This document shows, piece by piece, positions 53,863 through 64,000 of a stretch of 64,000 nt of DNA. Numbering within the stretch: the stretch's first letter is position 1; every line of letters starts with the position of its first letter. Source of the stretch: an uncultured delta proteobacterium (GTDB lineage Bacteria; Desulfobacterota; Binatia; JACPRU01); NCBI GenBank assembly GCA_963745025.1, contig CAVUWD010000019.1:160001-224000 (forward strand), in the 5' to 3' direction. The notes below the pieces were generated by a model. It was not told the DNA's origin, made no database searches, and worked only from the letters and a program-made list of their open reading frames with translations. Made by a program: the position numbers and the translations under genes.

Positions 53863-54258
53863 TCAGGTGCAGGCGCCGGACGTCACGGCGAAGACGCCGT
53901 TCTCGAGCTTGAAGCAGTCGCCGCCCACCTGATAGGTCTTGATGACGTACTCGTTCGGGGCGGGGAACTCGATCGTTCCGAAGGTGCCCGGAGACGTCTT
54001 TCCTCCCGGAATCGCCGGCTGCCCACCGGTGTCGAGTACAGGGCCGCCGTTGCCGGTGAACGGAGAAATGACGGGTGGCGAGGGTTGGGTCGAGACCATG
54101 TCCACGCCAGGGGCCAGTGCCCGCGCATCGCTCGCCGCGGTCGCGTTCAGTGCCGTGCTCTTGAACAAGCCGAAGTTCGAGAGAGCCAGGGTGGCGAGAA
54201 TTGCGATGATCGCAACCACTAGCAGCAGCTCGACGATCGTGAACCCGGAGTCCTTCAT
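53863..54258 (-). CDS. Type IV pilin-like protein with prepilin cleavage/N-methylation motif
   Basis: GGGAGGGAG RBS; MKDSG|FTIVELLLVVAIIAILATLAL; two C-terminal Cys. Confidence 0.9.
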   Translation of the reverse strand: MKDSGFTIVELLLVVAIIAILATLALSNFGLFKSTALNATAASDARALAPGVDMVSTQPSPPVISPFTGNGGPVLDTGGQPAIPGGKTSPGTFGTIEFPAPNEYVIKTYQVGGDCFKLENGVFAVTSGACT

Positions 54259-54320
54259 GGCTCCCTCCCTGTACCCGTTGGCGCTCAGTGTTCCACACGG
54301 CCCACTCCGCGCGCAAACCC

Positions 54321-54336
54321 AGCAACCGAGATGCCC
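54321..54336 (-). promoter_or_regulatory. Sigma54 (-24/-12) promoter for the pilin gene
   Basis: Minus strand GGGCATCTCGGTTGCT = GG-N10-GC, about 63 nt upstream of the ATG. Confidence 0.6.
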
Positions 54337-54456
54337 ACCGCGAAGCCCACGGTTCCACGGGTGCACGTCACAAGCTCGTTTCGTCTCGAGCCAGGACCTT
54401 GCGACCCGCGAACGATTCTGGTTGTTGTGACGCGACATTCCCCAAGGAGCCGATGA

Positions 54457-54762
54457 ATGGGAACGTTCGTCAAAGTCGCCGAGACCAAGGACCTCGCACC
54501 CGGTGCCGGGAAGACCGTCGAAGTGAACGGGAGGGAAGTAGCGCTCTTCAACGTAGGGGGCTCGTTCTACGCGGTGGACAATACTTGCAAACATCGCGGC
54601 GGCTCTCTCGGCGAAGGCGAGGTCGACGGCGCCGTGGTGACCTGCCCTCTGCACGCCTGGACCTACGATGTGACGACGGGTGAGTGCTTCGACGACCCCG
54701 CCTGCTCGATTGACCGCTTCGCGGTGAAAATCGAGGGCGACGACGTCCTCATCGAGCTGTAA
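54457..54762 (+). CDS. Rieske [2Fe-2S] ferredoxin
   Basis: AAGGAG RBS; CKHRGGSL...CPLHAW.YD..TG. Confidence 0.92.
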   Translation: MGTFVKVAETKDLAPGAGKTVEVNGREVALFNVGGSFYAVDNTCKHRGGSLGEGEVDGAVVTCPLHAWTYDVTTGECFDDPACSIDRFAVKIEGDDVLIEL

Positions 54763-54766
54763 GCCT

Positions 54767-54865
54767 CTGGAACTCTTCGCGACCATGGAGCCCGAAGACC
54801 ACGAGCAGGTGGTCTTCTGCCGCGACCGTTCGACCGGGCTGCGGGCGATCGTAGCCATTCGATGA
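54767..54865 (+). pseudogene. Truncated N-terminus of a Leu/Phe/Val dehydrogenase
   Basis: LELFATMEPEDHEQVVFCRDRSTGLRAIVAIR* matches the LeuDH N-terminus (EQxVFCxDxxxGLxAIIAIH). It stops before the PALGG motif and overlaps the next ATG. Confidence 0.7.
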
Positions 54866-55965
54866 TTCCTCCGAGTCCCTTTGCCGAGCTCGCGCGAGCG
54901 CGCGGAGCCGTATTCCGCGATTACGGGGGTCTCGCGCTCGTCGAGACGTACGGCGATCCGTTGGCGGAATGCACGGCGGTGCGTGCCGGCGCGGGGCTCT
55001 TCGATCTCTCGTTCCGGACGACGCTTCAGTTCACCGGACCAGATCGCACGACGTTTCTCCACAACCTGCTCTCGAACGACATCGCCGCGTTGCGCCCCGG
55101 TACGGGCTGCTATGCGACACTGCTGACGCGCGAGAGCAAGGTGGTGGCCGACGCCAACGTCTTCTGCATGGAAGACAGCATCCGGCTGGACCTGGACCTG
55201 CGAGTGAAAGACCGGGCGCGCGCGCATCTGGAAAAGTTTCTCGTCGCCGACGACGTCGAGATCGAGGACCGAACCGAGTCGGAGACGTCGCTCGGAGTTC
55301 ATGGCCCGCGCTCGAGCGAGATCTTGAGGGCGACGCTCGCCGCCGACGTTCCGGCCGCGGCCCTCCAGCACGTGACGGGAACGATTGCCGGCGCGCCCGT
55401 GCTCGTGGCGCGCGTCGAGTGGACGGGCGATCCGGGGTTCGACGTGACGGTCGCGCGCGCGGAGGGTCCGGCGGTGTGGCTGGCGCTGCTCGCCGCGGGG
55501 GCTCCGCTCGGGCTTCGGCCGGCGGGGATGGCCGCCGCCGAGATCTTGCGTCTCGAGGCCGGCATTCCCTACGTCGACGTCGACTTCGACGAGAGCCACC
55601 TGGTGCTCGAGGCCGGGCTCGAGCGTGGGATCAACTTTCAAAAGGGATGCTATCTCGGGCAGGAGATCGTCGAGCGCGCTTCGGCTCGGGGCCACGTGAA
55701 CAAGCGGCTCGTCGGCCTGCGGATCCACGGGGAGCGGACGCCCGCTCGAGGCGCTCGGATCCTAAAGGACGGAAGCGAGACCGGCCGGGTCACGAGCGCG
55801 GTCTTCTCTCCAAGCCTGCGGGCGCCGATCGCGCTTGGTTACGTGCGGCGCGACGCGATCGCCCCAGGTAGCCGGATCGACGTCGAGATCTCCGGCACGA
55901 CGGCGGTTGCGGAGGTGGTTGCCTTGCCGTTCTACCGCGGCGAAGGCAGAAAGAATCGGACATGA
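54862..55965 (+). CDS. ygfZ: YgfZ/GcvT-family folate-binding protein
   Basis: GLFDLS, GPDR..FLHNLLSND, RLEAGIP, FQKGCYLGQE.V.R..RGHVNKRL. Confidence 0.88.
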   Translation: MIPPSPFAELARARGAVFRDYGGLALVETYGDPLAECTAVRAGAGLFDLSFRTTLQFTGPDRTTFLHNLLSNDIAALRPGTGCYATLLTRESKVVADANVFCMEDSIRLDLDLRVKDRARAHLEKFLVADDVEIEDRTESETSLGVHGPRSSEILRATLAADVPAAALQHVTGTIAGAPVLVARVEWTGDPGFDVTVARAEGPAVWLALLAAGAPLGLRPAGMAAAEILRLEAGIPYVDVDFDESHLVLEAGLERGINFQKGCYLGQEIVERASARGHVNKRLVGLRIHGERTPARGARILKDGSETGRVTSAVFSPSLRAPIALGYVRRDAIAPGSRIDVEISGTTAVAEVVALPFYRGEGRKNRT

Positions 55966-55989
55966 TGTGAGAAATCAGGAGGAAGCCAG

Positions 55990-56130
55990 ATGCCTCAACT
56001 CGGAAAACGGTATGTCTGCGAGAGCTGCGGGACCGAGATTCTCTGCAACAAGCCGGGGACGGGAGCGACGTCCTGCTGCGAGCAGGACATGAAGCTCAAG
56101 GAAGCCAAGCCGCTACCCTCCTCGGATTGA
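55990..56130 (+). CDS. 46-aa desulforedoxin-motif protein with KPLPSSD tail (not in the ORF track)
   Basis: AGGAGG RBS; MPQLGKRYVCESCGTEILCNKPGTGATSCCEQDMKLKEAKPLPSSD; its stop overlaps the TTG of the next gene. Confidence 0.85.
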   Translation: MPQLGKRYVCESCGTEILCNKPGTGATSCCEQDMKLKEAKPLPSSD

Positions 56131-57593
56131 CCGTCAGGCCCTTGAGGGCCGATCTCATTCTCCTCGGCCACGTGTGGACCGGGGACCGAGAGCGCCCGCA
56201 CGCCCGGGCGGTCGCGGTGCTCGGCGCCCGGATCGCCGCCGTCGGCGACGAGGGGGAGATCCTCCGCCTGCGCGGCGCCGCCACGGAGGTGCTCGGCGGC
56301 CGCGACGCCACGATCCTCCCGGGATTCGTCGACGCGCATCTCCATCTCCTCGCCCTCGCGCGGCGCGCCGAGGAGGTCGACTGCTCGAGGGAGAGCGTGC
56401 GCTCGGTGGCGGAGCTCGTCGCGAAGATCCGCGCGGCCGCTGCGTCGCGACCTCCCGGGAGCTGGATCCGCGCGTTCGGTTACGACGAGTTCTTTCTCGA
56501 GGAGAAGCGTCCACCCCGCGTGGCCGATCTCGACGCGGCGGCCCCCGCCCATGCGGTTCGCTTGTTGCACCGCACGGGACACGCCGCCGTGCTCAACACG
56601 GTGGCGTGTCAGAGGCTCGGCATGGCGCCCTGCGAGGTGATCTACGAGCCGGCGGGTCTGTTGCGCGGCCGGATTCCCGCCCCGTCCGCCGCCGAAGCGA
56701 AGAGGCTCGTCGCGGCCGCTTCCGATCGACTGCTCGCCTCGGGCATCACGATGTTCCACGACCCGTCGCCCGGCCAGAGCGCGGCCGACATCGAGCATTT
56801 GCGAGCGTGGGTCGAGGAGGGGACGATCCGCCAGCGGGTGATTGCGCTCGGCGCCAGCACGGGCTTCGAGCCGGGCGACCGAGCCAGTCGATGGTTTCGC
56901 CACGCGGGTGTGAAGATCATGATCGGTGAAGCCGGCGACGCCGACGAGATCGCCGCGCAAGTTGCCGCGGCGGATCGTCGTGGGGCGCAAGTCGCGCTGC
57001 ACGCCGTCGAGGGGGCCGCGCTCGTGGTGGCGATCGAGGCGCTACGCCGGCTCGGTCCGGCCCGCACGCGGGCGCGGCGCCATCGCATCGAGCATGCCGC
57101 GCTTTGTCCGCCGCCGCTCTGCGAGGCGATCGCCGAAAGCGGCGCCGCTGTCGTCACCCACCCGGGCTTCCTTCGCCGCTTTGGGGAGAAATATCGAAGC
57201 GAGCTTCGTCGCGAAGAGGAGGATTGGCTCTATCCCTTACGACGCTTTCTCGATTCTGGAGTTCCGCTCGCGTTCGGGTCCGATGCACCGATTGCCCCGC
57301 CTTCGCCTCTGGACAACGTCAGCGCCGCGCTCTTGCGAGAGAGCGAAGGGGGAGCGCGGCTCGGGCCCTCGCAACGGATTCTCGCGGCCGAAGCGCTGGC
57401 GCTGCACACGCAGGGCGGCGCGTGGGTGGGCGGGCTCGACTCGATCTGCGGGTCGCTGGCGCCGGGCCGGCTCGCCGATCTCGTCGTGGTCGATCGTGAT
57501 CCGCTCGAGGTCCCGCCCGCGGAGATCGCCGCCATCCGGGTCCGGGCGACGGTGATCGAAGGGCGCGTCGTTTGGAGACGTGGCGACGTATGA
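56127..57593 (+). CDS. YtcJ-like metal-dependent amidohydrolase (Amidohydro_3)
   Basis: PGFVDAHLH, H..VLN, ALHAVEG, HRIEHA, FGSDAP, G.LADLVV. Confidence 0.88.
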   Translation: MTVRPLRADLILLGHVWTGDRERPHARAVAVLGARIAAVGDEGEILRLRGAATEVLGGRDATILPGFVDAHLHLLALARRAEEVDCSRESVRSVAELVAKIRAAAASRPPGSWIRAFGYDEFFLEEKRPPRVADLDAAAPAHAVRLLHRTGHAAVLNTVACQRLGMAPCEVIYEPAGLLRGRIPAPSAAEAKRLVAAASDRLLASGITMFHDPSPGQSAADIEHLRAWVEEGTIRQRVIALGASTGFEPGDRASRWFRHAGVKIMIGEAGDADEIAAQVAAADRRGAQVALHAVEGAALVVAIEALRRLGPARTRARRHRIEHAALCPPPLCEAIAESGAAVVTHPGFLRRFGEKYRSELRREEEDWLYPLRRFLDSGVPLAFGSDAPIAPPSPLDNVSAALLRESEGGARLGPSQRILAAEALALHTQGGAWVGGLDSICGSLAPGRLADLVVVDRDPLEVPPAEIAAIRVRATVIEGRVVWRRGDV

Positions 57594-58306
57594 GTGCATT
57601 TCGCACGATCCTCTTCGAACGCCGCGGGCAGGTGGCGTGGGTCACCCTCAACCGTCCCGACGTGCGCAACGCCTACAACACCGAGATGCGCGACGACCTC
57701 CACGCCGCGCTCTCGACCGTTCGAGACGACGAGTCGCTGCGTGCGCTCGTCCTCCGCGGCGCCGGTCCCGCGTTCTGCTCCGGCGGGGACATCCGCGAGT
57801 TCGGATCGGCTCCGTCGCCGGTCGTCGCTCGCGAGGTGCGCTGGCGGCGAGACGTATGGGGGCTCCTCCGCTCGCTGCGCCAGCCGACGATCGCGGCGAT
57901 TCACGGTCACGCCGCCGGCAGCGGCCTCGAGATGGCGCTGCTCTGCGACTTCCGTATCGCCGCAACCGATGCGATTCTTTCGCTGCCCGAGACCGGTCTC
58001 GGCATGATCCCCGGCGTCGTCGGCACGCAGACCGCCCCGCGGGCGATCGGCGTCGGGCGGACGCTCGACCTGGTATTGACCGGCCGGCAGATTGACGCTC
58101 GCGAGGCTCGCCGTGTAGGAGTCGTGGGCTCGGTGGTGTCGTCGGCGCGCCTAGCGGACGAGGCGAACCGGCTGGCGCGCCGGTTGGTGAAGCTCGACGG
58201 AGAGTTGATTTCCCGAGTGAAGAATCTCGTCGTTCGCGGCCTCGATCTACCGCTCACACTGGCGCTTGCTCGAGAGCGTCTCGTCGCAGGGAGAACGAAT
58301 CCATGA
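57590..58306 (+). CDS. Enoyl-CoA hydratase/isomerase (crotonase) family protein
   Basis: LNRP..RNA, AFCSGGD, G.GLEMAL.CD.R, LPETGLG.IPG. Confidence 0.88.
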   Translation: MSAFRTILFERRGQVAWVTLNRPDVRNAYNTEMRDDLHAALSTVRDDESLRALVLRGAGPAFCSGGDIREFGSAPSPVVAREVRWRRDVWGLLRSLRQPTIAAIHGHAAGSGLEMALLCDFRIAATDAILSLPETGLGMIPGVVGTQTAPRAIGVGRTLDLVLTGRQIDAREARRVGVVGSVVSSARLADEANRLARRLVKLDGELISRVKNLVVRGLDLPLTLALARERLVAGRTNP

Positions 58307-59853
58307 ATACCGCAAGCTTTCTCAGCATCCCGGCTTCGATGTTCGGCGACCAGGAGATCCTGGTGTTCGGCCCGCACCGGCGCTGTTACGGAGAGTTGCT
58401 CTCGCGCGTGCGCCGGCTCGCCGCCTCGATGCGGCAGGCGGGCATCGGCAAGGGGGACGTGGTCGCCGCGCTGCAGACGAACTCCGACACGTACCTCGAG
58501 ACGTATTACGCGAGCGCGACCCTGGGCGCCGTCTTCGTTCCGCTCAACTACCGAGCGAAGCCGCCGGAACTCGAATACGCGATCGCGACGGCGAAGACGA
58601 AGATGATCTTCGTCGGTGACCGCTACGCCGACCTGTTCGAAGCGCTTCGGCCGAAGCTGCCGTCGATCGCCTCCATCGTGACATACGAGAGCGGGGATTC
58701 GGGCTGGCTACGCTACGAAGAGCTCCTCGAGAACCAGGAAGAAGTCGAGGATACCGACGTCGAGGAGAGCGACGTCTCGATCCTCATGTACACGAGCGGG
58801 ACGACCAGTCTGCCGAAAGGCGTGCTCCTCACCCACGGCGATTTCACCGCGTACGTCACCAACACCATCGAGCTCGCCGACGGCTCCGACCGGGGCACCG
58901 CGCTCGTTTCCGTGCCATTTTACCACATCGCCGGCACCACGCAGATGATGACCACGATGTGGTCGGGGCGCCGACTGGTGATTCGTCCGCAGTTCCAAGC
59001 GACGGAGTGGCTGGAGACGGTTCAGCGCGAGTCTGTCACGCACGCGATCGTCGTGCCGACGATGCTCAAGCAGATCGTCGACCATCCCGACCTCGAGAAG
59101 TACAATCTGTCGACGCTCACGAATCTCTCGTACGGCGGCGCGCAGATGCCGTTGCCCGTGATTCGCCGCGCGATCGAGCGGCTGCCGAAGACGATCGGCT
59201 TCGTCAACGCCTACGGTCAGACCGAGACCACTTCGACGCTGACGATCCTCGGTCCCGACGATCATCGGCTGGAGGGTTCGCGCGAAGAGGTCGAAAAGAA
59301 GGTGCGCCGCCTGGCCTCGATCGGCAAGCCGCTGCCCGACGTCGAGGTCCGGGTCGTGGACGACGCCGGCAACCCGTTGCCGGCGGGCGAGGTCGGCGAG
59401 ATCGTGGTTCGTACGCCGCGCATGATGAAGGGCTATGCGACCGAGAGCGGCGCCGCGATGAGCCTGCTCGAGGGCGGATGGCTCCGCACCCGCGACATGG
59501 GCTGGGTCGACGAGGACGGCTACATCTATCTCGCGGGCCGCAAGGACGACATGATCATCCGCGGCGGCGAGAACATCGCGCCCGCCGAGGTCGAAGCCGT
59601 GTTGCAGAGTCATCCGGGCGTCGACGACGTCGCGGTGTTCGGCGTGCCGAGCGACGAGTGGGGGCAGATCGTCGCCGCCGCGGTCGTACTCCGGAGCGAA
59701 GGATCTCTCTCGGCGCAGGACCTCGCCGAGTTCTGCAAGCAACGGCTGGCGAGCTTCAAGAAGCCCGAGAAGATCTTGTTCATGCCGGAGCTGCCGCGCA
59801 ATCCGCTCGGCAAGGTGCTCAAGAAAGATCTGAAGCAGCAATTCGGAGACTGA
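58303..59853 (+). CDS. Acyl-CoA synthetase / AMP-dependent ligase (FadD-like)
   Basis: YTSGTTSLPKG, NAYGQTE, WLRTRDMG, GRKDDMIIRGGENI, LPRNPLGKVLK. Confidence 0.93.
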   Translation: MNTASFLSIPASMFGDQEILVFGPHRRCYGELLSRVRRLAASMRQAGIGKGDVVAALQTNSDTYLETYYASATLGAVFVPLNYRAKPPELEYAIATAKTKMIFVGDRYADLFEALRPKLPSIASIVTYESGDSGWLRYEELLENQEEVEDTDVEESDVSILMYTSGTTSLPKGVLLTHGDFTAYVTNTIELADGSDRGTALVSVPFYHIAGTTQMMTTMWSGRRLVIRPQFQATEWLETVQRESVTHAIVVPTMLKQIVDHPDLEKYNLSTLTNLSYGGAQMPLPVIRRAIERLPKTIGFVNAYGQTETTSTLTILGPDDHRLEGSREEVEKKVRRLASIGKPLPDVEVRVVDDAGNPLPAGEVGEIVVRTPRMMKGYATESGAAMSLLEGGWLRTRDMGWVDEDGYIYLAGRKDDMIIRGGENIAPAEVEAVLQSHPGVDDVAVFGVPSDEWGQIVAAAVVLRSEGSLSAQDLAEFCKQRLASFKKPEKILFMPELPRNPLGKVLKKDLKQQFGD

Positions 59854-60605
59854 TGGCGCGACGCAGCCGAGCGGTGACGTTCGACCGGCGAGGGCATCTC
59901 GCCGAGCTGGTCCTGGACCTCCGCGAGAGCGGGGGCCGCTTCACGCCCGAGTCCGCCGTGGCGTTCTCGGAGGCCTGCACTCGATGCGACGACGAAGAGG
60001 TCTGGGTGGTGCTGTTGCGTTCGGCGGCTCCCGACCTCTGCATCGGCCTCGAGGGCCGGTTCTCCGATTGGCCGCGGGTCTCGGGCACCGACTTCGTGAC
60101 CTCGCTGGCGTCGATCCGCCAGCCGGTTGTGCTTGCCGTGCGGCGTCGCGCCGAGGCCGAAGGCTTCGAGTTCGCGCTGGCCGCCGATCTCCGCGTCGTC
60201 GAGCCGCGGACCCGGTTCTTGATGCCGCAGGTGGCGGCCGGGACCCTGCCGGGCTTCGGCGGCACCCAGCGCCTGCCCCGACTCGTCGGGGTCGAGCGAA
60301 CGCTGCGCGCGCTGCTACTCGGCGAGCCGATCTCGGGCAGGAAGGCGGTCGAGTGGGGACTCGCGACGCGCCTCGAGGCACGTGCCGATCGCGCGGCGCT
60401 CCGGCTCGCGAAGACGCTTCTCGAGCGTGGTCCACTCTCCCTCCGTTTTGCGAAGGAAGCCGTACGCCGCTCGTTGGATCTCGCTCTTGACGACGGTGCG
60501 CGTTTCGAGCACGACCTCTACGTGTTGCTCGAGACGACGCGCGACCGCGCCGAGGGAGTCGACGCGTTTCTCGGCAAGCGAAAACCGAAATTTCGAGGAC
60601 AATAG
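59853..60605 (+). CDS. Divergent enoyl-CoA hydratase/isomerase family protein
   Basis: GFEFALAADLR, PGFGGTQRLPRLVG, DRAEGVDAFLGKRKPKFRG; TGATG coupling with the upstream gene. Confidence 0.85.
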   Translation: MARRSRAVTFDRRGHLAELVLDLRESGGRFTPESAVAFSEACTRCDDEEVWVVLLRSAAPDLCIGLEGRFSDWPRVSGTDFVTSLASIRQPVVLAVRRRAEAEGFEFALAADLRVVEPRTRFLMPQVAAGTLPGFGGTQRLPRLVGVERTLRALLLGEPISGRKAVEWGLATRLEARADRAALRLAKTLLERGPLSLRFAKEAVRRSLDLALDDGARFEHDLYVLLETTRDRAEGVDAFLGKRKPKFRGQ

Positions 60606-60615
60606 GAGACCGGTG

Positions 60616-60735
60616 ATGCCGAACCAGCTGGGAAAGATGTACGTCTGCGCGAAGTGTGGAGCTCAAGTGATCGTCACCAAGGCGGGCAGCGGCTCGCTCC
60701 AGTGCTGTGGTCAGCCGATGGAGCAAAAGAAGTAG
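60616..60735 (+). CDS. 39-aa desulforedoxin-motif protein
   Basis: AGGAG RBS; MPNQLGKMYVCAKCGAQVIVTKAGSGSLQCCGQPMEQKK (CxxC-x15-CC). Confidence 0.85.
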   Translation: MPNQLGKMYVCAKCGAQVIVTKAGSGSLQCCGQPMEQKK

Positions 60736-61326
60736 ATGGCCCGCCTTCGGCCGCTCGAGGGGCGTGACGCAGGGCTCGTCACGAGGGCCGTTCAGGCTGT
60801 CTTCCGCCTCGCTCTCGGCCGCGAACTCAACCCGTACAAGCTGGAAGCGTATGCGCCGCGCACGGTGCTCGCGTCGTTTCTGTCGAACACCCTGATGACG
60901 ACCGGGCGTTGGGCGCTGGCGGGGGATTTCCGGCAGATGATCCGCGTCCGCGTCGCGGCGCTCAACGGATGCCCGTTCTGAATGGACATCAACGCCGCCG
61001 TGGGCGGCCAGCGCGGGCTGCCTCAGGAGAAGATCGATGCGGCGCTCGGCGTGCGCTCGGCCGACGCGGCCGGCCTTTCGAGCCGCGAGCGACTCGCCCT
61101 CGAATACAGCGATCGGGTGAGCGCCACGCCGGTCGACGTCCCCGACGACTTCTTCGCGCGACTCGCCGCCGAGTTCTCGGAACGAGAGATCGTCGAGCTA
61201 ACCGCTACGATCGCCCACGAGAACTACAATTCCAAGTTCAATCGGCCACTGCGGATCGAAGCGAACAACTTCTGCCAGATCCCTCTGCCGACGCCGGAAG
61301 AGCTGGCGGCAAGGAGAGCCGGATGA
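60736..61326 (+). CDS. AhpD/carboxymuconolactone-decarboxylase-family protein with in-frame UGA (putative selenoprotein, CxxU)
   Basis: ORFs 60736-60981 and 60982-61326 share a frame. The joined product reads ...RVAALNGCPF-U-MDIN...ERLALEY.D...FSEREIVELT..IA.EN..SKFN..L. Confidence 0.85.
60982..61012 (+). promoter_or_regulatory. Putative bacterial SECIS hairpin
   Basis: GCCGCC-GUG-GGCGGC stem-loop starting 12 nt after the UGA, with the apical G(U) 19 nt downstream. Confidence 0.55.
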
Positions 61327-62304: not shown

Positions 62305-62649
62305 ATGAACGACGATTGCGTGTTCTGCAAGATCGTCACGGGAGCGATTCCCGCGAAGTTCGTGCACCAGGAGGACGAGCTGGTGGCGATCGAGGACCTC
62401 CATCCTCAGGCGCCCACGCACCTGCTCGTGATCCCCAAACGCCACATCCCCACGGTGCTCGACCTGAAGCCCGAGCACGCGCGGCTGCTCGGGCGGATCT
62501 TCGAGACCGCGAATCGGCTGGCGCTCGATCGCACGCTCGAAGGTGGGTTCCGCGTCGTCGTCAACAATGGACCGGGCGGCGGTCAAACCGTCTATCACCT
62601 CCACTTCCATCTACTCGGTGGCCGACCAATGCGGTGGCCGCCGGGGTGA
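62305..62649 (+). CDS. hinT: Histidine triad nucleotide-binding protein (HinT)
   Basis: DCVFCKI, PQAP.H.LVIPKRH, GQTVYHLHFHLLGGR...WPPG. Confidence 0.92.
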   Translation: MNDDCVFCKIVTGAIPAKFVHQEDELVAIEDLHPQAPTHLLVIPKRHIPTVLDLKPEHARLLGRIFETANRLALDRTLEGGFRVVVNNGPGGGQTVYHLHFHLLGGRPMRWPPG

Positions 62650-63110
62650 AGGTGAAGAAGAAGCAGGACGTCCGGCCCGAGGTCATCGTCTATACCGACG
62701 GGGCGTGCTCCGGAAATCCCGGACCCGGAGGATGGGCCGCGGTGCTCCGCTACGGCGATCACGAGCGCGAGATCTCCGGCGGCGAGTCGCACACGACGAA
62801 CCAAAAGATGGAGCTCACCGCGGCCATCGAGGCGCTGCGTGCCCTCGGGCGCCCCTGTCGCGTGCGCCTGCACAGCGATAGCGCCTACCTGGTGAACTGC
62901 TTCCGGCAACGCTGGCACGAGACGTGGATTCGCAACGGCTGGATGAGCCGCAACAAGACGCCGGTCACCAACCGCACGCTTTGGGAGGAGCTCATCCGCC
63001 TCGCCGAGATTCACGATGTCGAGTGGATCAAAGTGGCCGGCCATTCGGGTGATCCGCTGAACGAGCGTTGCGACGCGCTCGCCCGCGCCGAGATCGAGCG
63101 CGTCGCATGA
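62646..63110 (+). CDS. rnhA: Ribonuclease HI
   Basis: YTDGACSGNPGPGGW, TTNQKMEL.A, SDS.Y, V.N..LW, GHSG...NERCD.LA. Confidence 0.95.
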   Translation: MKVKKKQDVRPEVIVYTDGACSGNPGPGGWAAVLRYGDHEREISGGESHTTNQKMELTAAIEALRALGRPCRVRLHSDSAYLVNCFRQRWHETWIRNGWMSRNKTPVTNRTLWEELIRLAEIHDVEWIKVAGHSGDPLNERCDALARAEIERVA

Positions 63111-63224: not shown

Positions 63225-64000
63225 CTAGCTGACTAGCTTGGCGGAAAGGATCCGCGCGGTGTTGAACACGCGCTGGTCCTGCCGGAGGCGGCAGAAGCCG
63301 GTGAGGTAACGCCCGTCGAAGCTCGACGGCTCGACGATCCGGCGAGTCACACCCTGAAAACCGTCGTACTCGATCTCCATCGGCGTGTGATTCTCGACCG
63401 CCGTGAGTAGCAACGCGCGGATGTCTTCGCTGTCGCGCGCCTCGGTCGGCGCCTTGGGCTTCCTTTTCGCGCTCTTGCCGTGCACGCGCAGGAGCTTTTC
63501 GACCAGCGACTCGAGCTCTTGGGCGCGCGTCGGCGCCCCCGTGTCCTCTCGCCGTGTGAGCTCGAGAGCGAGGATCTCCTCGAGCGCGGCGAGCGCCGAG
63601 AGGTCGAAGTCGGGATCCACCTCGCGCGCCAGTTTGGTCGCCGCGCGCACCGCCGCATAGATCTCCTCGAACTCGGGGCGCGTGAGCGTGAGCTGTGCGC
63701 CGCGGGCGGTCACCTGCACCTTGTCGGTTCCCGCCGACGAGACGCTGTAGCCGGCCTTGCGGAGCTCTCTTCCGAGGGTCGCGAGGTCGACGTTCGACGT
63801 GAGCAGCGCGAGCGCATCGCCGATGCGGCGCTGGATGTAGGGGGCGAAGCGCGGATTGGCTTCGAGCTCACCGAGCAGCGTGCCCTCGCGGGCCTCGATG
63901 TAGGGCCCGGCGACGCCGATCCGCACCTCTCCGTGGCGGCCCTCGCAGTCCTCGACGAGCTGGCGCACGGTGGCCGGTACGCCGGTCCCGCTCACCGATT
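63225..64000 (-). CDS. 3' part of an XPB-type helicase-associated (Helicase_C_3) plus C-terminal WYL-domain protein
   Basis: VPATVRQLVED...HGEVRIG; C-terminal MEIEY...TRRIVEP...YLTGFCRLRQDQRVFNTARI (WYL). Confidence 0.75.
   Translation of the reverse strand, partial: SVSGTGVPATVRQLVEDCEGRHGEVRIGVAGPYIEAREGTLLGELEANPRFAPYIQRRIGDALALLTSNVDLATLGRELRKAGYSVSSAGTDKVQVTARGAQLTLTRPEFEEIYAAVRAATKLAREVDPDFDLSALAALEEILALELTRREDTGAPTRAQELESLVEKLLRVHGKSAKRKPKAPTEARDSEDIRALLLTAVENHTPMEIEYDGFQGVTRRIVEPSSFDGRYLTGFCRLRQDQRVFNTARILSAKLVS

Follow-up and report, generated by a model that had tools for sequence, protein, structure and literature searches.

Desulforedoxin of Desulfovibrio gigas (Dx, 1DXG/1CFW), a homodimer, and the N-terminal domain of desulfoferrodoxin are the closest described relatives of the protein considered here, and the contexts in which desulforedoxins occur are those of redox metabolism in sulfate reducers. 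MbtH-like proteins are very small, are encoded next to a subset of the adenylate-forming (ANL-superfamily) enzymes and are needed by them, and DUF35 proteins are small rubredoxin-like Zn-ribbons that serve as non-catalytic subunits of thiolase complexes in coenzyme A (CoA)-ester metabolism. Few enzymes of catabolism and biocatalysis have been studied as thoroughly as the ANL acyl-CoA ligases, and none of these ligases is known to need a small protein partner, the nonribosomal peptide synthetase (NRPS) adenylation domains with their MbtH-like proteins excepted. The present analysis concerns DxT, a gene for a protein of 46 amino acids (aa) in a stretch of 64,000 nucleotides (nt) from contig CAVUWD010000019.1 of an uncultured delta proteobacterium, the whole of which is called the window below. 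DxT is a real gene for a desulforedoxin-type mini-protein, its C-terminal tail is under purifying selection, and it forms a fusable pair with Dx2, a tail-less mini-protein gene of the same operon. This Dx module and one clade of ANL acyl-CoA ligases are inherited together, at least in Actinomycetota, Pseudomonadota and the window's phylum. The favored reading, to which a probability of about 0.5 is given, is that DxT and Dx2 make up an accessory or adaptor subunit, itself non-catalytic, for the CoA-activation step, and that the tail docks via its terminal Asp.

The Dx family resembles desulforedoxin and the desulfoferrodoxin N-domain in its Pfam family (PF06397), in the CxxC...CC pattern and in the fold of modeled relatives. 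In contrast to desulforedoxin, it carries an additional invariant tail of 10 residues at the C-terminus and has a GKR motif. Two unlike halves, in a constant pair or fused, take the place of the homodimer, many of the family's members lack the cysteines, and it is found in soil Actinomycetota, sphingomonads and Binatia-type metagenome-assembled genomes (MAGs) beside acyl-CoA ligases. The likeness to MbtH-like proteins, the nearest analogy for the proposed role but a working one only, is that a tiny protein has its gene next to those of some ANL enzymes (one of 29 in the window genome) and is inherited together with them. However, fold and sequence are unrelated, MbtH-like proteins have neither a metal site nor a terminal tail and serve NRPS adenylation domains, and the MbtH family was not matched by DxT or by three relatives (P0001, P0071, P0139, P0198; Pfam, E ≤ 10). 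Scaffolds of the DUF35/Zn-ribbon OB-fold type are annotated in some of the same plasmid loci as the Dx family, but they differ in family, size and partner, a thiolase, and lack the conserved terminal Asp tail. A further likeness, in layout, is to the LysW/AmCP carrier proteins, which combine a metal-ribbon body of about 50 aa with a flexible tail and a conserved acidic residue at the extreme C-terminus. No account of a tailed desulforedoxin family was found in the literature covered, outside of which most subscription journals lie.

Tail and fold of the Dx family

The strong ribosome-binding site, the Cys4 metal-finger core and the acid-ending EAKPLPSSD tail that the first-pass annotation had read from the letters are all present, and the paralog at 60616 (Dx2) is indeed tail-less and ends in QKK. 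The DxT product terminates in ...LKEAKPLPSSD at a TGA stop codon (56128-56130), and its Cys10, Cys13, Cys29 and Cys30 form the CxxC...CC pattern of desulforedoxin, with Cys19 as a fifth cysteine. C10, C13, C29 and C30 are unchanged across 43 Binatia-type copies, and the window protein has five conserved Cys residues. DxT scores 27.1 bits against PF06397, above the cut-off of 23, and this family has two matches only in the 5.6-Mb genome, DxT and Dx2. The stricter NCBIfam domain model TIGR00319 is missed by both (18.1 for DxT and 35.5 for Dx2, cut-off 36.05), and the NCBIfam scan of DxT (E ≤ 0.01) gave solely desulfoferrodoxin models, all under their cut-offs. A profile search of the PDB (E ≤ 1, 11 matches) retrieved desulfoferrodoxin 1vzg (E 0.0019) and desulforedoxin 1cfw (E 0.0055), and desulforedoxin and desulfoferrodoxin were the only family members among its matches. 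No LysW family or chain appeared in these searches or in Pfam at E ≤ 10, which returned desulforedoxin families only; the Pfam and NCBIfam libraries presumably contain LysW models. Homologs elsewhere are labeled either "hypothetical protein" or "Desulfoferrodoxin, N-terminal domain".

The alignment of homologs that had been proposed at the first pass was carried out, and the tail proved to be conserved and terminal. A word-indexed database search gave 68 homologs, 66 of which end in KPLPSSD, and the two exceptions resemble a read-through and a frameshift. Because such a search may favor words of the tail itself, 80 genome loci were retrieved from 584 confirmed relatives via a pattern in the core of the protein, E[VIA]LC[NT]K[PA]GxG; nearly all are MAGs labeled Candidatus Binatia or "delta proteobacterium". 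With the window included, all 81 copies have a stop immediately after PSSD. K(-6), P(-3), both Ser and the terminal D never vary among them; position -5 is P in 73, A in 7 and T in 1, and position -4 is L in 76 and V in 5. The tail Ser residues are encoded by both TCN and AGY codons, the Pro residues by all four of theirs, and the stop is TGA in 48, TAG in 13 and TAA in 20 copies. Such synonymous variation and three stop codons around a constant PSSD-stop indicate that purifying selection acts on the protein and also on the precise point at which it ends, and the conservation goes far beyond what chance would give.

The wider family was collected by an index-free HMMER search with a 55-sequence profile, which at E ≤ 1e-3 yielded 1203 representative clusters, of which 251 reach E ≤ 1e-10. 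Among the best 150 of the 1203 representatives, 127 terminate in D and 128 in a small-small-acid sequence, and the remaining 22 are mostly apparent read-throughs or truncations, or members of a side clade with different ends. For the 115 representatives with standard spacing, the terminal residue was counted apart from positions -1 to -6: it is D in all 115, and the upstream positions hold K or R at -6 (108), L at -4 (96), P at -3 (106), S at -2 (98) and S at -1 (95), with A, G or T as substitutes of the two Ser residues. Judged from these alignments, the terminal Asp would be the essential residue of the tail and neither Ser would be essential, and a role of the Ser-Ser pair as a loading site, suggested earlier, is unlikely in view of these substitutions. 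The side clade (P0088, P0153, P0120, P0130, P0146 and P0160) consists of two-domain fusions ending in ...KAAF/...NAAF or ...[AIVM]SE, which might represent another version of the tail, suited to some other partner.

The metal ligands of the same 115 representatives vary: the four positions read CCCC in 49 and CCCH in 28, and two or fewer Cys residues are left in 31. Many representatives of 83-119 aa are fusions in which a tail-less desulforedoxin-like domain is followed by a linker and, last, by a tailed domain. An alignment of 43 fused forms has G59, R61 (of the GKR motif), G77 and the terminal D as its only invariant residues, with no Cys among them, and many fused forms have lost the cysteines and kept the GKR motif and the tail, which argues against a simple electron carrier. 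The conserved core of the family is the GKR motif with the terminal tail rather than the metal site. A third architecture, in which a helical N-terminal domain of about 60 aa precedes the tailed domain, is found in 11 of the best 150 representatives (P0132, P0145, P0149, P0162, P0163, P0167, P0168, P0177, P0202, P0206 and P0208). In P0075 (122 aa), which has a hydrophobic, signal- or anchor-like N-terminal stretch, the domain order is reversed, with the tailed-type domain first and lacking a terminal tail, and the tail-less type last, ending in ELKK. P0248, a 508-aa ABC ATPase in the 90% cluster of a 47-aa tailed mini-protein, was rejected as a clustering artefact and not a fusion.

The fold was checked on models of relatives (P0071 and P0132) rather than of the window DxT. 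The model of the fused protein P0071 has a predicted local distance difference test score (pLDDT) of 92.2 and a predicted template-modeling score (pTM) of 0.80, and one of its domains superposes on desulforedoxin 1dxg_A over 36 residues with a TM-score of 0.96 (normalized to the target) and a root-mean-square deviation (rmsd) of 0.5 Å. Foldseek E-values for this 36-residue domain are weak (1dxg_A, E 1.3), and the assignment of the fold therefore rests on TM-score, rmsd and sequence family together. P0132, a member of the third architecture, matches 1cfw_A with Z 5.7 and an rmsd of 0.8 Å over 36/36 residues; for the N-terminal domain of this architecture, no Pfam family was found and the fold search gave no clear match past the desulforedoxin part (all others Z ≤ 4.1). 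In the ESM Atlas, every neighbor is a cluster labeled "hypothetical protein" from Actinomycetota or Pseudomonadota.

Operon structure and the ligase clade

In 80 Binatia-type loci, the gene order is that of the window: a gcvT-like gene, DxT, an optional amidohydrolase gene, ECH1 (enoyl-CoA hydratase 1, a crotonase), the ligase gene, ECH2 (enoyl-CoA hydratase 2) and Dx2. Among loci with sufficient flank, the gcvT-like gene lies directly upstream of DxT in 72 of 79, and the next gene after DxT encodes the amidohydrolase in 53 of 75, ECH1 in 19 and another protein in three; within 6.5 kb downstream, ECH1 is found in 58 of 59 and the ligase in 57 of 59, and Dx2 lies 1-6.5 kb downstream of DxT in 57 of 59. 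From DxT to Dx2, the gene junctions of the window overlap or abut (TTGA, ATGA, then TGATG, where the ATG of ECH2 overlaps the ligase stop), followed by a 10-nt gap, and DxT and Dx2 bracket the operon genes about 4.5 kb apart. The description of the hydrolase and the AMP-ligase as adjacent to DxT was right for the first, which is directly next and overlaps the DxT stop, and less so for the second, which lies two genes downstream. The protein of the gcvT-like gene is matched by the YgfZ model TIGR03317 (77.5, cut-off 49) and stays under the cut-offs of the GcvT models; its gene is absent from all nine plasmid loci described below and is missing from the tandem loci of other classes. The nearest solved structures to the amidohydrolase are the uncharacterized hydrolases 3icj and 3igh. 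Dimethylsulfoniopropionate- and ferulate-type pathways were considered for the operon and rejected, as the GcvT-like protein and the crotonases are far under the respective equivalog cut-offs.

In classes of the phylum other than that of the window, Dx2 and DxT stand in tandem, in this order and 15-50 nt apart. That the tandem and the fused forms share this order points, in the classic manner, to the two window proteins acting as a single unit.

The window ligase carries all ANL motifs, and among solved structures it is closest to feruloyl- and fatty-acyl-CoA synthetases. Of the 29 AMP-binding matches in the window genome, only this one adjoins the Dx pair. In a maximum-likelihood tree, 18 Dx-adjacent ligases (the window's, five Binatia-type, four from other classes and eight from plasmids) form one side of a branch with ultrafast bootstrap and SH-aLRT (approximate likelihood ratio test) supports of 100/99, against 25 other ANL paralogs, all from the window genome itself. 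Residues R223, A248, Y277, A303 and H321 are invariant inside this clade and rare outside it. A survey of 201 genomes of the phylum found a Dx match (E ≤ 1e-8) in 14, of which 12 are tailed, and an ortholog of the ligase (E ≤ 1e-120 and identity of at least 46%, a threshold chosen by the authors and applied to kin genomes that are not independent) in 10, all of them among the 12 tailed genomes and none among the other 189. One of the two remaining tailed genomes (G182) has a contig that ends just past Dx2; the other (G152) is discussed below. The order ECH-ECH-ligase-Dx2-DxT recurs in loci from other classes of the phylum (L092, L093, L096, L097 and partly L098), and an amidohydrolase homolog is close by in L093, L095 and L096.

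A tblastn search of plasmids with a Cys-free fused form gave 18 records, from Rhodococcus (11), Streptomyces (3), Sphingobium (2), Sphingomonas (1) and Mycobacterium (1). Gene contexts were examined for nine of the 18, which represent all five genera. Where the mini-protein gene is annotated, it is called a "hypothetical protein", and its immediate same-strand neighbor is a "class I adenylate-forming" or "fatty acid-CoA ligase" gene in eight of the nine. An amidohydrolase gene lies within 4-7 kb in two of nine, and the other neighbors are varied CoA-ester enzymes (crotonases, acyl-CoA dehydrogenases and thiolases) that differ by locus. A suggestion, offered at the first pass as unverified, that small proteins ending in PLP(S/A)SD stand near ligase and crotonase genes in other phyla was thereby borne out for plasmids of Actinomycetota and Alphaproteobacteria and for other classes of the phylum.

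Possible roles of the Dx module

The favored reading proceeds from DxT and the tail-less Dx2 as a two-part module, tandem or fused elsewhere, which may serve CoA activation in an acid-degradation pathway with the ligase, two crotonases and often the amidohydrolase. The working element would be the terminal [K/R]-x-[L/I]-P-small-small-Asp-COOH sequence, along with the GKR motif with which the fold begins, and the Cys4 metal site would be structural and not an electron-transfer center. The most likely role of the tail is that of a non-covalent docking peptide, whose two terminal carboxylates could meet a basic or metal site on a partner enzyme, probably the ligase. We infer that the module binds its partner physically, that the tail docks and that ligase activity is affected. 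A complex prediction for the ligase and DxT gave ipSAE interface scores of 0.40, 0.15 and 0.16, with a median below the 0.32 mark; it was made with DxT in the absence of Dx2, perhaps the wrong unit, and without controls.

Several findings weigh against the favored reading. In G152, a two-subunit CoA-transferase (PF01144 subunits, 4.7e-55 and 1.4e-31) takes the position of the ligase between ECH1 and Dx2-DxT (L103/L094, G152:C10, ~104000-109500), and a CoA-transferase gene is found on the other flank of the mini-protein gene in four of the nine plasmid loci. The replacement in G152 and these flanking genes suggest that the partner may be the CoA-activation step generally or a downstream enzyme, instead of the ligase as such. 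In G143, a genome of the window's class, a gcvT-like/amidohydrolase/ECH1/ligase operon is present without Dx genes (L102, G143:C13:17000-35000; ligase 60-62% identical), and the genome has its fused Dx-DxT gene, which is Cys-free, on a different contig (L099, G143:C8:235760-247891) among unrelated neighbors, namely sulfotransferase, alanine-racemase-like and ABC-transporter genes. A Rhodococcus gordoniae plasmid locus (H18) has no ligase within 4 kb. One member of the third architecture is labeled Candidatus Nealsonbacteria, a lineage with little CoA-ester metabolism. The outsiders of the ligase tree are the window genome's own paralogs only, and kin genomes are not independent. Enzyme fusions were also sought among longer homologs, and the nine matches, of 89-115 aa, included none with a ligase, crotonase or hydrolase, which is weak evidence.

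A covalent carrier is an unlikely alternative. Here, the protein would be a swinging arm on which the ANL ligase adenylates the terminal Asp carboxylate, or whose carboxylate takes the substrate, so that CoA, an acyl group or an amine is carried as a thioester, anhydride or amide, and the amidohydrolase, if present, frees the product. As in LysW, a small metal-ribbon body is followed by an acidic residue that is invariant and strictly terminal, the Asp is the sole tail residue without exception in both the 115 representatives and the 81 copies, and the steady neighbors (the ANL ligases, the flanking CoA-transferases of the plasmid loci and the G152 replacement) activate carboxylates; CoA-transferases act through an enzyme Asp/Glu-CoA thioester. 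The amidohydrolase is recurrent as well, both in the Binatia-type loci and near those of other classes and two plasmid loci. On the other hand, LysW genes stand with those for a loading ligase of the ATP-grasp class (LysX/ArgX type) and for a carrier-dependent kinase, reductase and aminotransferase, and the window operon contains no ATP-grasp enzyme, kinase, reductase or M20 peptidase, nor is an ATP-grasp enzyme listed in the nine annotated plasmid loci; the partners of the Dx family are an ANL ligase and crotonases and not the ATP-grasp enzyme LysX with LysZ, LysY, LysJ and LysK. The Dx tail reads K-P-L-P-S-S-D, whereas the LysW end is acidic. A carrier pathway needs a fixed set of enzymes, but the CoA-thioester enzymes beside the family are ordinary ones that vary by locus. 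A dedicated releasing peptidase present in every locus was not found: the amidohydrolase, which the first-pass annotation had put forward as a possible releasing enzyme, is absent from many loci in which the tail is unchanged, and is thus dispensable. Both Ser positions accept Ala or Gly, and the ligase keeps all CoA-forming ANL motifs. Membership in the LysW/AmCP group, raised at the first pass, fails because there is no sequence relationship and there are no LysW enzymes, and because the amidohydrolase is optional, Ser-Ser is not conserved and the ligase looks ordinary. Somewhat more doubtful still is the specific proposal that the terminal Asp is a trans-acting catalytic carboxylate on such an arm, which would form an aspartyl-adenylate or an aspartyl-CoA thioester via the ligase or the CoA-transferase. 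If this were true, the mini-protein would be a new kind of carrier that passes CoA or acyl groups between enzymes by a LysW-like logic with unrelated sequence and chemistry.

An electron carrier of the rubredoxin/desulforedoxin type, with an Fe(Cys)4 center that feeds a redox enzyme of the pathway, is improbable. PF06397 and the CxxC...CC pattern of both DxT and Dx2, together with the desulforedoxin fold of the modeled relatives, would fit this role, but the tail is kept in all of the 115 representatives, including the 31 with two or fewer ligand Cys residues and the 28 with a Cys3His set, and no Cys is invariant among the 43 fused forms. No conserved oxidoreductase adjoins the family: there is none in the Binatia-type operon, and the plasmid loci differ among themselves. 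A redox role would leave the invariant tail unexplained. The loss of cysteines in relatives argues that redox activity is not the conserved function.

A metal- or redox-sensing regulator that switches the ligase, or a metal-delivery factor, possibly matured by the YgfZ-like protein, has a similarly low probability. YgfZ-type proteins are tied to the upkeep of Fe-S clusters, the gene for one stands immediately upstream in most Binatia-type loci, and the five conserved Cys residues of the window protein would suit a sensor. However, neither the nine plasmid loci nor the tandem loci in other classes contain that gene, which limits the fit of a sensor or of YgfZ-dependent maturation to Binatia-type genomes, and metal-free relatives retain both the tail and the synteny with the ligase. 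Finally, a role as precursor of a ribosomally synthesized and modified peptide, or as a peptide that is tagged or secreted, with the C-terminus as core or recognition signal, is highly improbable: small size, abundant Cys and a conserved C-terminal motif would suit it, but the protein folds compactly and belongs to a known family, its operon lacks radical-SAM, YcaO, lanthipeptide and protease/export genes, and fusion to a second folded domain does not fit.

The family is large, with 1203 representative clusters at E ≤ 1e-3; it is annotated as "hypothetical protein" only, and it occurs in the cultivable Rhodococcus, Streptomyces and Mycobacterium and in sphingomonads. The seven-residue C-terminal tail, its most conserved part, offers a direct experimental handle. 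If the tail is a docking plug, as the favored reading has it, this could explain why some heterologously expressed ligases of the clade might be inactive alone, and if it is a covalent arm, a new carrier principle would follow. The family is also a case in which the desulforedoxin fold is reused without its metal.

Features of the window

The features of the operon and of its surroundings are collected in Table 1.

Table 1. Positions of the Dx genes, their operon and neighboring reading frames in the window
Feature	Position	Strand	Basis or remark
GcvT/YgfZ-family folate-binding protein	54862..55965	+	PF01571, PF08669; directly upstream of DxT
Shine-Dalgarno AGGAGG	55977..55982	+	7 nt 5' of ATG 55990; sequence read
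DxT, 46-aa tailed desulforedoxin-fold mini-protein (P0001)	55990..56130 (including stop)	+	PF06397, homologs, purifying selection
Tail codons K40-P-L-P-S-S-D46	56107..56127	+	Conservation of tail and stop in 81/81 copies
Amidohydro_3 metal-dependent hydrolase	56127..57593	+	PF07969 8.2e-69; TTG start (56127) overlaps DxT stop
Crotonase/enoyl-CoA hydratase 1 (ECH1)	57572..58306	+	PF00378 5.5e-50
ANL-superfamily acyl-CoA ligase	58303..59853	+	PF00501, PF13193; NF004837 483.8, cut-off 476
Crotonase/enoyl-CoA hydratase 2 (ECH2)	59853..60605	+	PF00378 on C-terminal part of open reading frame (ORF) 58959-60605
Dx2, 39-aa tail-less desulforedoxin-fold partner, ending QKK	60616..60735	+	PF06397 38.7 bits
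81-aa ORF directly after Dx2	60736..60981	+	No Pfam/NCBIfam family
ORF overlapping the gcvT-like gene	53863..55728	-	PF07963 prepilin methylation motif, 24.6 bits, residues 491-516 (~54180-54260)
RNase H domain protein, downstream of operon	62316..63110	+	N-terminal extension of ~120 aa
WYL-domain protein, downstream of operon	63225..63995	-	Helicase-C-like stretch under cut-off

The 81-aa ORF is conserved, with counterparts of 52-95% identity just after Dx2 in the five closest loci (L003, L005, L008, L010 and L011). For the minus-strand ORF, the position of the prepilin motif suggests a short pilin-like gene at ~53863-54260 instead of the long reading frame.

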